Positions 52,301-58,300 of a stretch of DNA of 64,000 nucleotides are shown here, in pieces. The translations under genes were made by a program, and so were the position numbers. How positions within the stretch are numbered: the first letter of the stretch is position 1; each line of letters opens with the position of its first letter. The stretch lies in NCBI GenBank assembly GCA_964016885.1, contig OZ024747.1, positions 25,048,001 through 25,112,000 on the forward strand, in the 5' to 3' direction. This DNA is from Eledone cirrhosa (taxonomy: Eukaryota). The notes under the pieces are model-generated. The model worked only from the letters and a program-made list of their open reading frames with translations. It did not search any database and had not been told where the DNA came from.

Positions 52301-55300
52301 GCGAACAAGCTAATTATATATATATATATAAGGAAAAGAATTTTAAAATGCAACTGGAGTCTTTTTAATATTTATTTATTTCCTTTACCAGCTTCACAGT
52401 TCTTATGCTTCTCAAACGTAGAATTGAGATGGAGGGTTTGTGGTTTATCTCGCATATTTATATATATATTTATTTATATACAGGTTGCCCATAAATTATA
52501 ATTACAACTTGGGATTTACTTAAATTATTAATTATTTCATTAATAAGATAGTATTTGTAACAAATCGTACTTATATAAAATTAAGTTGCAAGAGTTTTGT
52601 TTAAATAGGGACCTTTTAAAATGGATAGTTTTGTTTCATAGGACCAGAGCAAGTTTTGGGCAGGATGACATCATAAGGGTTAAAAAGTACTTTTCTTTAC
52701 AAACATTGTAGAAAAATAAAAGAAACTAAATGTACAAATGCTAATTATGAGAGAAATGTTAATAAAATGATATACCTTTATAATAGTTAAGTCTTGCTTT
52801 GTTAAAACATAAATTAGGAATGTCATAACTGTGGCAGCAATTGGTGCTAACTGAGGAAGACAACTATTCACAGCCTGTACGAAACCACAGATTTCTAGAA
52901 GTTTCTTTTCTCTCTGTCGAATATCTGAAGAAAATAAAAAGATAATGGAAATCTGCTTCTGTTAGTTATCTGTAGTAGCAGTCATGGTAGTAATTTAAAA
53001 GAAAATATCTCCTCCTTCATTAGATAAATTGATCATTTGTATTTACTTTCTGCCAAACAATTCTTATTGGTGTTTCTTCAAACCGAATACAGTGGTAATA
53101 TAACAACTTTCCACAGAGTGGTAATATAAAAGCTTTCTACCTCTTCACACATTGGTCATTTAACAACTTTCCACCTCTCCACCCAGTGGTAATATAACAA
53201 CTTTCCACCTCTCCACACAGTGGTAATATAACAACTTTCCACCTCTCCACACAGTGGTAATATAACAACTTCCCACCTCTCCACACAGTGGTAATATAAC
53301 AACTTTCAAACCTCTTCCCACAACCATTTATATTTTCAATGAAGTTTGCAGGATCTTTTGAACTACATGGGTTGAACTACATGGCATGGAACATAAAAGA
53401 TTGAGAAATACTGGTTTAGAGAGATCTTTCAAAATTCTGATGTCTGTAGGTAAATTCATTTAACCCTTTAGCATTTACATTACTCTATATTTACTATTGC
53501 TTTTTCACGGTAAACATTTTTACTTCACATAATTATATCACATAATATCGAAACTACGAAATTTTGATATTATTTATTTTGAGAACAATACCTTAACATA
53601 AGTATGAACAGCCAGTTATAGCCGGTTTGAACAGAATTCTGGAAGGATTCGGCCGATTTAAATGCTAAAGAGTTAAATAAGTAAGCTGTTTTTTTGGTAG
53701 TGATAGGTTTGGGAATCATTGTTGTATGTCAACATATGACTATACTATTTTTTTTTTTTTTGACGGCAGGTATTTGTATTGAAGTATTTTTAGGTGAAGA
53801 ATTTAAAACAAAATATTTTTTAAAAAATAACATTTTTATTTATTCATAATTTGTCATTTTTTAAAAGTAATGACAAGTTTAGACATAGATGTAAAGTTTG
53901 AAATTATGAAGTAAAACAGATTTACCATCACAAAACTACCACCATCAACACCCTCACCACCAACACAACGATGACCATGATCACCACTATACCAACAACA
54001 TCAACAATAACTATAACACTAACAGTAACAATAACAACACTATTACCACCATCAAAAACAACACCACAACCAACAACAACAATAGCAATGCTTCCACAAA
54101 CAACAACACCAACTCCAACACCGTCACCGTCACTACACCACTTCAATCACCATCAACAACAACATCACCCCTTATCACCATCACTACCACAACCATCAGC
54201 ACCACAGTCAGTATCCATTTGAAAATAATCACAAAATTTACCTTTAATTTTTGTAATGAAGGAATCTTCCCATGCGTACATCTTAATTAAACGGATGTAG
54301 TTAATGATCTCATTAGTAATATTGATCTGAAATTAAATTCAAATGTCACCATATTAATATGTTCATTACTATATTTCTAATTAAGGCACTACCTATGGTT
54401 TTTAAATAACTTTGAAAATAATCAAGAATTTTGAGGTATTTAGTAGTACAACTAACTTATTAAATTGATATTTAGAGCATAATTTAACAAAGGTTCTTAC
54501 ATAAAATTATGATGGAAGACTTTTAGATAAATATACACACTTTAAAATAAACAGCTTTGTATCATAGACCTAAGAACAGTTTCTGGAAGGTTGCTATCAA
54601 AAGGGTTAATAGAAATATCTTTTAACATTCTTGAAAGATAAATTCTATTTTGTATGTTAGCTTATTATAACCACATCAATGACAGAAGAATGTCTTATAG
54701 TGACAGTTATGTAAGTCAATTAAAAGTGACTGAAACGAAAAAGTCCCAAAACTTCTTGAGTATACCTCGTACTTCTGCAGGACTAGAACTATTTAATTTA
54801 TTTGAACTCATCAGGTATGTCATAACATTGGTTAAGTTTGCTATTTATATAATTCTTTGGGAAAGAGAGAAAAGGAGGAGCAAAGAAAGCCATTCTTAAT
54901 TTTATATATATATATATATATATATATTAATAAGAGGAATTCCAACTTTGTCTGATTTACTCGTTTTATTTACAATCCTTTAAAATATATATAATGGTAT
55001 TATAATGAAATAGTATGATAGAATATTAAATTCTAAGTGTTAATTGAACAAGTACTTTCATGCTTTCGCAATCTTCAGGTTCATAATATGTGGTGACAGT
55101 CGAGTTTGCAATTTTCACAGTTGAAAATTGCAAACTCGCTTGACTGTCACCACATATTATGAACCTGAAGATTGCGAAAGCATGAAAGTACTTGTTCAAT
55201 TAACACTTAGAATTTAATATTCTATCATACTATTTCATTATAATACCATTATATATATTTTAAAGGATTGTAAATAAAACGAGTAAATCAGACAAAGTTG

Positions 55301-58300
55301 GAATTCCTCTTATTAATATAATCTTCTATACACAATCATACACACCCGTGTATATTTACCTATCTATATCTATATATATATATATATATATAGTATTTTC
55401 CGTAGTGTTGTAATATGAATATTACAATATTCTGATGAAATGACAGTTGATAATAACATTGAAATATTGAGTGTCTGCATAATTAATACTTTGTAGATAG
55501 CAGCTGTTTTCAGGTTATGTAACTGTTATTGAAACACGTGTCAATAAATTCCTTTTAACTGAACTGTATCCATTTAAATCCTTCTATATATATATATATA
55601 TATATTTATATATATATATATCATCATCATCATCATTTTACGTCCGCTTTTCCCTGCTTGCAAGGGTGGGACGGGAACTGATTCTGGCTTGATTTCTACA
55701 GCTGGATGCCCTTCCTAACACCAACCTCATTTACAGTGAGTGCTGGGTGCTTTTTTGCCGTGGCACCTCCACGACCACTTTACAGTGGAATGATAGGGAC
55801 CCCAGTCCCATCTCATTTCTACAGCTGAGTAAACTGGAGCAATGTGAAATAAAGTGTCTTGCTCAAGGAAACAACACATCACCCGGTCTGAGAATTGAAC
55901 TCACAACCTTTCGATTGCAAGGCCAATGCTCTCAATATGTATATATATATATATATATATATATATATACACACATATATATAAACTAATATATACACAC
56001 ACACATATATAAACTAATATACACACACACACACACACACATACATATATATATATATATATATATATATATATATATATGGAGGCACATGGCTTAGTGG
56101 TTAGAGCATTGGCCTTGCAATCGAAAGGTTGTGAGTTCAATTCTCAGACCGGGCGATGTGTTGTTTCCTTGAGCAAGACACTTTATTTCACATTGCTCCA
56201 GTTTACTCAGCTGTAGAAATGAGATGGGACTATCCGGGAGCTTCCAACAGTAATGGTTGCATTCTTTAAGGGTATGTCAATATTTATTTATAAAACTGCT
56301 CTATATTATATTTTATCTGATGAAAGCACACCATAATTTAACTTGGTGTCCTTGAAATATGTATAATGAAATAAATATGGTTTTATAAATATAGTTTCCA
56401 TTTGTTAATATCGTATATATATATATATATATATATGTATATATATATATATTTATATATATAGAGAGAGAGATATTTATATATATATATATATATATAT
56501 ATTTATATATATATATTTATATATATATATATATTTATATATATATATATATATATATATATATATATTTATATATATATATATTTATATATATATATAT
56601 ATATATTTATATATATATATATATATATTTATATATATATATATATATATATATATATAAATATATATATATATATATAAATATATATATATATATATAT
56701 AAATATATATATATATATATATATATAAATATATATATATATATATAAATATATATATATATATATATATACGTGTAGACGCGTTCTTGAGACTAGTAAA
56801 ATGAGGTATCCTCTTGATAAGTCGGCAGACCTCGCAGGGACTCTATATCTTTATGATATATTGTTTTTGTTTATGCCACGAAACTACGTAGTCGAGGAAT
56901 TTAGGAGCAGTTTAGGTATGATACATTTTATTACTAATTATATCTAAATGTTTCTTCTCTCTTCATAATGTATATATATGTATATATATATATATATTTA
57001 TATATATATATATATATATATATATATATATATATATATATATATAAACAGGGTAAATGCAGAAATTAATAGAGATGAGACAAACAGACAGCAATATAAC
57101 AAAATGCGAATATTTACCCTCTTGTCAATTACTTTGACAGATTTTCTTCTATATTCTATTCCAAACTTATTTACAAATATCTGAAAAATATACATCATAT
57201 ACATCATATATATATCATCATCATCATCACTATTTTACGTCCGTTCTTCCACGCTAGCATGGATTAGACGGGTTGTCCTGTTGTGGGCAATGCCAGGTCA
57301 GGTGACCATGTCTTGCTCATACGGGAACTGATTTCTACAGCTGGATGCCCTTCCTAACACCAACCTCATTTACAGTGAGTGCTGGGTGCTTTTTTACCAT
57401 GGCACCTACACAACCACTTTACAGTGTGGACTGGGTGCTTTTTTGTCATGACACCTCCACGACCACTTTGCAGTGGGAGGGGATGGGGGCATATTGTCTT
57501 ATGCTTCAGCTTCAGCTTGTACCCGTGGGAAGTCGGGTCTTCTGTATTAATATATACGTATATATATATATACACATATAGCACTACTGATCATCCTGCA
57601 GCTTTGTGTATGCATGTGTGTGCGAGTGTGTATGTGTGTGTGAGTATGTATGTGTGTGTGAGTGTGTATGTGTGTGTGTACATGTTATTATCATCATCAG
57701 TCTACATCCACTTTTCCATGCTGATAAGCATTGGATGGGTCATTACAATCCAAGTGAATTCTTATTTGGAGTTACAGCCTTCATAACTGTATCACCTGTC
57801 TGAAATATTAACTGTGTGGTTAAGGAATTTGCTTAGCAACTATGTGATTTCAGATTCCATTCCATGGCACAGCAATTTGGGCAAGTGTCATCTTCTATAG
57901 ACTCAGTTGACCAATTCTTTGTGAGTGAAATTTGGTAGATGGAACCTATCCAGAAGCCCATTATATGTGTGTGTGTCTATGTGTGTGTGTGTGTGTGTGA
58001 GATGAGTGTGTGTGTGAGTGAATGTGTGTGTGTGAGTGTGTGTGTGTGTGTGTGAGATGAGTGTGTGTGTGTGAGATGAGTGTGTGTGTGCATCAGTGAG
58101 TGTGTGTGAGAGAGAGAGAGAGAGAGAAAGAGAGAAAGTGTGTATTTGTGTCTGTGTTTGTTTATCTAAACTATAATAAAGTAAGAAGCACGAGACTGCG
58201 TACAGTTTATAATTTTTTATCCCCTTAGTAAAATAAGTTGAATTACTTTGTATAAATAATTGTTTCTATTTTAGGCACAAGGCCAGCAATTACCCAGTAC

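Follow-up and report, generated by a model that had tools for sequence, protein, structure and literature searches.

A stretch of 64,000 nucleotides from the Eledone cirrhosa genome (assembly GCA_964016885.1, contig OZ024747.1, positions 25,048,001 to 25,112,000 of the forward strand; hereafter the window) includes an intron in which four predicted hammerhead ribozymes, each in a module of its own, are stacked among (TA)n tracts and short interspersed nuclear elements (SINEs). The intron belongs to an octopod ABCC5/MRP5-like ABC transporter gene. The ABCC5-like exons, taken from tblastn matches above 55% identity, run from approximately 60900 down to 10263 and lie on the minus strand only; for the exon at 38222–38425, the nearest proteins by identity are octopod ABCC5/MRP5-like proteins (Argonauta 90%, Octopus bimaculoides 91%). 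The host intron (54327–57117, minus strand) is 2791 bp long, is in phase 0 with GT..AG boundaries, and is flanked by exons at 57180–57118 and 54326–54243 that were located by tblastn with Argonauta and Octopus bimaculoides proteins. The module cluster (54903–57046) occupies 2144 bp of it. A preliminary description of the sequence had placed all of the modules in one intron, which the splice sites bear out, and did not mention that the host strand is the minus strand. Since the host gene is read from this strand, modules 2–4, like the tailed arm of module 1, run antisense to its pre-mRNA.

A descriptor scan combined with folding identified four type-I hammerheads on the plus strand with predicted cleavage nucleotides at 55193, 55542, 56365 and 56893, as well as a mirror of hammerhead 1 on the minus strand (core 55078, site 55050). 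Each of the four modules and the mirror presents the core boxes CUGANGA (or its U3-A8 variant), GAAA and NUH in type-I order together with three helices. The first, stricter descriptor detected modules 1–3 and the mirror and missed module 4, which has a bulged helix II. The descriptor was then relaxed, after module 4 had been seen, to allow one bulge in helix II and to require a self-complementary helix III; with it, all four hammerheads and the mirror were recovered where the preliminary description had placed them. In the cluster region, the relaxed descriptor returned five cores, whereas 1000 block-wise dinucleotide shuffles averaged 0.002 (998 with none, two with one); for the entire 64-kb window, it returned ten cores, and 40 shuffles averaged 0.3. 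The hammerhead calls are based on the descriptor and folding, not on Rfam covariance models. Modules 1–4 are unrelated to each other, as had been proposed, with pairwise BLAST alignments of at most 35 nt and E-values no better than 0.009, and no tandem or direct repeat of any of them was found.

Module 1 is a head-to-head palindrome (54923–55320) centered at about 55119/55120 with a 4-nt loop. Its 182-nt arms (54923–55104 and 55139–55320) are 99% complementary and differ by a single 4-nt indel. Both hammerheads face outward, and the left arm meets the adjacent TA tract through a short TA-like microhomology. Hammerhead 1 (55160–55198, plus strand) has a CUGAAGA core and a CUU cleavage site at 55193; a U.U mismatch is followed by a 3-bp helix II capped by a tetraloop, and helix III is a 6-nt palindrome. 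When compared by eye, this layout matches the hammerheads listed for Penelope-like elements (PLEs) of the Hydra clade. The mirror hammerhead (55045–55083, minus strand) is the only host-sense hammerhead of the cluster and is sequestered in a hairpin of approximately 190 bp. A 40-bp tail of the optional PLE type (55321–55360, plus strand) follows the right arm only. The combination of an inversion with such a tail is a PLE trait that is seen in one of the four modules, namely module 1.

Module 2 (55393–55584, plus strand, 192 bp) opens with a 12-bp hairpin that may be compared to the small 5' palindromes of described PLE pseudo-long terminal repeats (pLTRs). In its hammerhead (55428–55546), an 11-bp helix II is lengthened to a 92-nt rod, helix III is an 8-nt palindrome, and the GUC site at 55542 lies 42 nt from the TA-rich 3' limit. 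Module 3 (56232–56413, plus strand) measures about 182 bp with an uncertain 5' limit. Its hammerhead (56309–56373) has an 8-bp helix I that runs into a rod, a 30-nt helix II arm, a helix III that is self-complementary through G-U pairs, and an AUA site at 56365, 48 nt from TA. Immediately before this core, at 56311, there is a run of four T residues, which by the terminator rule could terminate polymerase III. Module 4 (56772–56970, plus strand, 199 bp) contains a hammerhead (56809–56898) with the U3-A8 core variant, a bulged helix II with a 59-nt arm cap, a 10-nt palindromic helix III, and a GUC site at 56893, 77 nt from TA.

The modules share more than their cores. They are 182–239 bp long, with 42–167 nt between the cleavage site and the module end, and helix III is self-complementary in all four. 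For modules 1, 2 and 4, the helix III self-duplex (-6.2, -11.7 and -14.3) is favored over the best pairing with any other module (-2.2, -4.7 and -4.7). Module 3 is the exception (-3.6 with itself versus -4.1 with module 4). As a monomer, the active fold is predicted to cost 2.5–6.8 kcal/mol locally and, with 250 nt of flanking sequence, 74.7, 11.6, 5.3 and 9.2 kcal/mol for modules 1, 2, 3 and 4, respectively. On the sense strand, folding is better than in 100 shuffled sequences for modules 2 and 4 (z = -2.0 and -2.6) and no better for modules 1 and 3 (z = +0.2 and -1.2). With limits set by eye, the 5' end falls 39–50 nt upstream of the core in five of six families. Four of these limits lie within 7 nt of each other, for which the post hoc probability is 0.004–0.07 over mean truncation lengths of 100–30 nt. 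A defined pLTR start would account for this fixed offset.

The modules are separated by (TA)n tracts at 54903–54927, 55361–55392, 55585–55621, 56414–56771 (358 bp) and 56971–57046, together with a TA/CA microsatellite at 55935–56080. The long tract is interrupted by TTT solely to the left of 56644 and by AAA solely to the right, at roughly mirrored distances from this point (14.5/14.5, 36.5/34.5 and 58.5/56.5 nt), a pattern attributable to fold-back synthesis or to a read artefact. The cluster also contains a tRNA-headed SINE in two copies. The first (55640–55932, minus strand) is 96% identical to a copy at 37408–37691. The second (56081–56231, plus strand; tRNA head at 56090–56147, 28.1 bits) is truncated at its 3' end and adjoins module 3. 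The TA tracts and the two SINE pieces are thus arranged as the preliminary description had them, except that the 5' side of module 3 borders the truncated SINE and not TA. Between 55804 and 56231, the two SINE copies form a 129-bp inverted pair (99% identity), giving the host intron a second long hairpin. The heads of this young SINE adjoin TA tracts both in the cluster and at 37713. A SINE-driven chimeric transcript of module 3 was considered and rejected: there is a single junction, other copies of the SINE continue normally, and the T run precedes the core.

Considering the whole window, where four more hammerhead insertions described below bring the total to eight, the insertions are associated with TA. 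When a tract is defined as at least six TA units, seven of the eight insertions have one downstream, no more than 180 nt from the cleavage site, compared with a background of 0.108 (p = 1e-6), and the association holds for three of the four insertions outside the cluster (p = 0.005). In the cluster itself, TA follows all four module sites at 43–178 nt. Since a (TA)n preference is common to Hydra, Neptune and Naiad elements, it is not diagnostic of the Hydra clade. Four of the eight events fall within 1.8 kb, which has a probability of 0.005 under uniform placement. With TA-aware null models, the same clustering has a probability of 0.06–0.08 per tract, 0.12–0.13 with added targets, and 0.33 per TA base, values that do not account for the window having been picked for this feature. 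Given the TA preference, the clustering is therefore unremarkable. The preliminary description had pictured an insertion hotspot in which each insertion renews the TA target. Independent, TA-targeting insertions are supported by these numbers and a special hotspot is not; the outcome that was said to speak against it, clustering equal to the expectation per TA tract, is nearly what is found within the window. Insertion into a TA tract in any case necessarily leaves two tracts behind.

With their hammerhead anatomy, TA junctions, common antisense position in the intron and, for module 1, an inversion with a one-sided tail, the modules are probably solo pLTRs or terminal remnants of four hammerhead-bearing, (TA)n-targeting PLE families of the Hydra or Neptune type, or non-autonomous derivatives of these. 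In such a scheme, a PLE endonuclease would nick a TA tract and the PLE reverse transcriptase (RT) would copy the 3' end of the element there, in four separate arrivals. The inverted arm of module 1 may have been gained through fold-back priming. With TA left on both sides of every insertion, the intron would keep presenting targets, and young SINEs may also have inserted beside TA. The solo-pLTR size could have come about by recombination, by truncation, or by the mobilization of a short pLTR transcript. The ribozymes would serve the RNA cycle of the parent element, probably as helix III homodimers, and would be passengers in this intron.

Hammerhead-bearing, TA-targeting PLEs are already a known class that includes Octopus, although the preliminary description gave no name to the class. 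The available text of Cervera and de la Pena (2014, PMC4209133) describes PLE pLTRs with minimal type-I hammerheads, palindromic helix III and the U3-A8 variant, found mostly as single dispersed truncated copies, with opposite-strand pairs 100–700 bp apart. The modules agree in being type I, in their short palindromic helix III, in the U3-A8 variant, and in occurring as single copies or opposite-strand pairs. They differ in that G10.1-C11.1 is present only in module 4 and in the great length of their helix II arms. That text does not describe a stack of four families within a single intron. The portion of Craig et al. (2021, PMC8557442) at hand gives an inverted 5'-truncated copy and a 30–40-bp one-sided tail as PLE hallmarks, and gives (TA)n targets and a hammerhead near the 3' end for Hydra-clade PLEs, including Hydra-1_Obim of Octopus bimaculoides. 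Compared to that material, the likeness extends to the targets, the type-I hammerhead near the 3' end, the U.U mismatch with a short helix II in module 1, and an inverted copy that places hammerheads on both strands, as in Penelope-13_HM. In contrast, the modules have no open reading frame (ORF) and match none of the listed consensus sequences, and their helix III palindromes are without the single central base of many listed motifs. For the Penelope pLTRs of Adineta vaga, the accessible sections of Arkhipova et al. (2013, PMC3846280) report lengths of 181–218 bp, small palindromes at the beginning of some, solo copies, and a self-priming model. The modules resemble these pLTRs in unit size (about 180–220 bp), head-to-head inversion, an optional tail (about 31 bp there), 5' palindromes and solo copies, whereas target-site duplications and linked ORFs belong to the Adineta elements, and TA targets without ORF codons to the modules. 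According to the part of PMC13282606 that was available, PLEs account for 6.83% of the O. vulgaris genome and fall into 190 families; thus, unrelated neighbors are to be expected.

Several results weigh against this interpretation. At gathering thresholds, Rfam identified no hammerhead family in the entire window, and none was among the 42 matches obtained for the cluster region at E ≤ 10. No second copy of modules 1–4 was identified by BLAST within the window (0 of 4), six-frame translation of the modules revealed no ORF remnant, and no match in the cluster was found with one Hydra-like protein, with a set of 150 PLE-like proteins, or with a profile based on that set. Five short motifs taken from the hammerheads of the four modules and of the 12.5-kb family described below were sought as exact matches in the published consensus files for Naiad, Chlamys and Hydra, and none was found (0 of 5); FASTA line breaks can hide matches from such a search. 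The Octopus Naiad and Hydra 3' ends are unlike the modules by eye, and modules 2 and 4 have helix II arms (92 and 59 nt) that exceed those listed for Hydra-clade elements in the text consulted. Finally, a target-site duplication cannot be recognized within TA sequence. The lack of an ORF is expected for solo pLTRs, so it blocks a family assignment and leaves the claim of PLE-like behavior standing; the parent families are unassigned because the modules have neither an ORF nor a second copy in the window. For a 16-nt end motif of Octopus Naiad, one match with three mismatches was obtained in the window, which is at chance level. The Rfam matches to miRNA and pestivirus families were set aside as hairpin and TA artefacts, far under their gathering scores. 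A loose hammerhead-1 pattern returned at least 120 loci from prokaryotic genomes; no returned locus matched any of the modules beyond 35 nt, and two of 120 completed a hammerhead-like fold, so this search was uninformative.

A broader proposal, which must be regarded as unlikely, is that octopods harbor many non-autonomous hammerhead mini-elements of approximately 190–240 nt with fixed 5' ends, self-feeding TA nests, and selection for antisense or hairpin-locked intron ribozymes. As a doubtful refinement, these would be SINE-like partners of TA-targeting PLEs whose 5' end lies 40–50 nt before the core. It is just as speculative that helix II in some of them has grown to a 60–90-nt rod that standard descriptors and Rfam miss. 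There is a similarly small chance that insertion is accompanied by fold-back TA synthesis, as in the mirrored 358-bp tract, creating new targets, and that long double-stranded RNA is left as a substrate for editing enzymes. A-to-I editing would be expected at intronic hairpins.

An unlikely alternative is that the modules are monomers of non-LTR retrozymes, non-coding elements of unit length whose hammerhead-cut RNA is circularized and reinserted at TA by PLE enzymes. It overlaps with the assignment to PLE ends in that retrozymes have been proposed to derive from pLTRs, and it predicts small circular RNAs and no linked ORF anywhere. The modules do agree with non-LTR retrozymes in being non-coding and AT-rich, in the type-I hammerhead, in a unit size within range, and in a PLE relationship, as far as the available text of Cervera and de la Pena (2020, PMC7229834) goes. 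The similar lengths, the recurring 5' limit in five of six families, the better-than-shuffled folding of modules 2 and 4, the absence of ORF remnants, and a 340-nt hammerhead-to-hammerhead tandem at 30526–31084 are also in its favor, and solo monomers are reported as dispersed in the accessible part of a preprint (Li et al. 2026, bioRxiv 10.64898/2026.07.22.740005). However, the same 2020 text treats the tandem repetition of one unit as defining, whereas the modules here are four single, unrelated units, and no module is repeated in tandem. A single hammerhead per module cannot free a unit, the sense strands of modules 1 and 3 fold no better than shuffles, and an inversion accompanied by a one-sided tail is typical of PLEs. 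A retrozyme array was rejected for want of a tandem.

The preliminary description had further suggested that a plus-strand transcript could be cut into defined fragments. As an account of the cluster, an intron transcript antisense to the host gene, cut at the four sites into RNAs of 349, 823 and 528 nt that have an independent role, is very unlikely. All four modules have intact cores, a plus-strand tRNA-headed SINE lies immediately upstream of module 3, and the main copies share one strand (4 of 4 antisense, p = 0.06). Against this, the host gene is transcribed from the minus strand, and across the gene six of eight insertions are antisense (p = 0.14), which fits either chance or mild selection against sense ribozymes. 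The T run could halt polymerase III ahead of core 3. Given the unfavorable monomer folds and the preference of helix III for self-pairing in modules 1, 2 and 4 (module 3 being the exception), cooperative cutting of one plus-strand RNA is unlikely, and the suggestion finds no support. Monomeric minimal hammerheads are without detectable cleavage in the accessible text of PMC4209133. Cleavage of the host pre-mRNA by this cluster was likewise rejected on strand and folding: the antisense or hairpin-locked ribozymes are predicted not to cut ABCC5 pre-mRNA, and release of the one host-sense copy, the mirror of module 1, would require 74.7 kcal/mol of refolding.

Chance motifs in AT-rich DNA or assembly artefacts (a fold-back chimera or mis-assembled TA) are the least credible account, for which the missing Rfam match, the post hoc relaxation of the descriptor and a possible read artefact in the mirrored TTT/AAA of the long tract can be cited, but which is contradicted by five matches where 0.002 were expected, by the joint occurrence of a self-complementary helix III, core covariation and a Hydra-type layout, and by a palindrome with an internal indel and one-sided tail whose architecture recurs in an unrelated family at 12.4–12.7 kb. 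The feature is real and its kind is known: PLE-type hammerhead ends have accumulated as a nest within a TA-rich intron. It is best seen as ordinary mobile-DNA debris and not as a device for cutting RNA.

Beyond the cluster, the window contains four more such insertions, with cores from the same scan at 12580 (plus) and 12501 (minus), 30576 (plus), 31237 (minus) and 48127 (minus). The 12.4–12.7-kb element (12396–12747), in another ABCC5 intron, has the architecture of module 1 in an unrelated sequence: a perfect 248-bp palindrome (12417–12664) with cores on both strands, TA on the left, and a 63-bp one-sided extension followed by TA on the right. A single-arm copy of this 12.5-kb family (31156–31286, minus strand) is 97.7% identical, lies against TA, and is host-sense with its site at 31192. 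Such modules do disperse, since this family is present twice. The single arm begins at almost the same point as the palindrome center of its sister. Its monomer fold is fairly stable (2.2 kcal/mol locally, 5.1 kcal/mol with flanks), which makes it a better candidate than modules 1–4 for cutting the host pre-mRNA, as judged by folding. An older hammerhead element (30236–31084) consists of a 219-nt unit repeated at 340-nt spacing (88%) with an additional inverted copy. Its second hammerhead, at approximately 30916, was found by alignment rather than by the descriptor, and the element is either retrozyme-like or a PLE partial tandem. It ends at a TA tract common to the 31.2-kb module, forming a second nest with two families. 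The last insertion is a textbook minimal hammerhead in host-sense orientation (48096–48131, minus strand) with a helix III of no more than a 4-nt palindrome and only a short TA run downstream.

No PLE coding remnant lies inside the cluster. Elsewhere in the window, two PLE endonuclease remnants were identified on the minus strand. The first (8448–8975) is a broken C-terminal GIY-YIG region that matches RT-bearing PLE proteins (E = 1e-46); among eight homologs tested, GIY-YIG was present in six and RT in seven. It is followed by a possible decayed hammerhead, seen by eye, and a TA tract at 8247–8265. This fragment at 8.6 kb was identified solely by a HMMER library search, a word-based homolog search having returned 0 of 38 candidates. 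The second remnant (37783–38007, E = 2e-14) lies between two TA tracts, with a weak RT-like fragment nearby at approximately 39380–39540. A Naiad-like origin was considered for it and dismissed, as comparison by eye with its single homolog and with the published Hydra alignments indicates the Hydra clade. Neither endonuclease fragment had a Pfam match.

If the modules are PLE ends, the cluster represents dense yet expected debris of abundant, TA-targeting elements, and in that respect it matters little. It does add four predicted natural hammerhead variants that Rfam misses, two of them with an unusually long helix II, and clean examples of junctions (inversion center, tail and TA microhomology) that bear on the PLE insertion mechanism. 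Should the fixed 5' offset and the TA fold-back be true genome-wide, they would provide handles on PLE transcript starts and on the mutual amplification of retroelements and microsatellites. A literature search by title or abstract start, covering few subscription papers, found nothing on stacked hammerhead modules in octopus introns.

Among the other features of the window are minisatellites at 1–348, 4770–5220, 15754–16476, 53110–53322 and 62497–62695, with units of 64, 49/50, 34, 34 and 37 bp, respectively; the descriptor found no hammerheads in these five arrays. Another ABCC5 intron contains a near-intact long interspersed nuclear element (31794–35297, minus strand) with apurinic/apyrimidinic (AP) endonuclease, RT and C2H2 fingers and one stop at 33876–33878. 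A mariner-type transposase remnant (Pfam Transposase_1 and DDE_3) is found at 41116–42192 on the plus strand. At 903–1973 on the minus strand lies a large exon of a neighboring gene, which encodes folate-receptor-like and GSDH domains and which is presumably HHIP-like.

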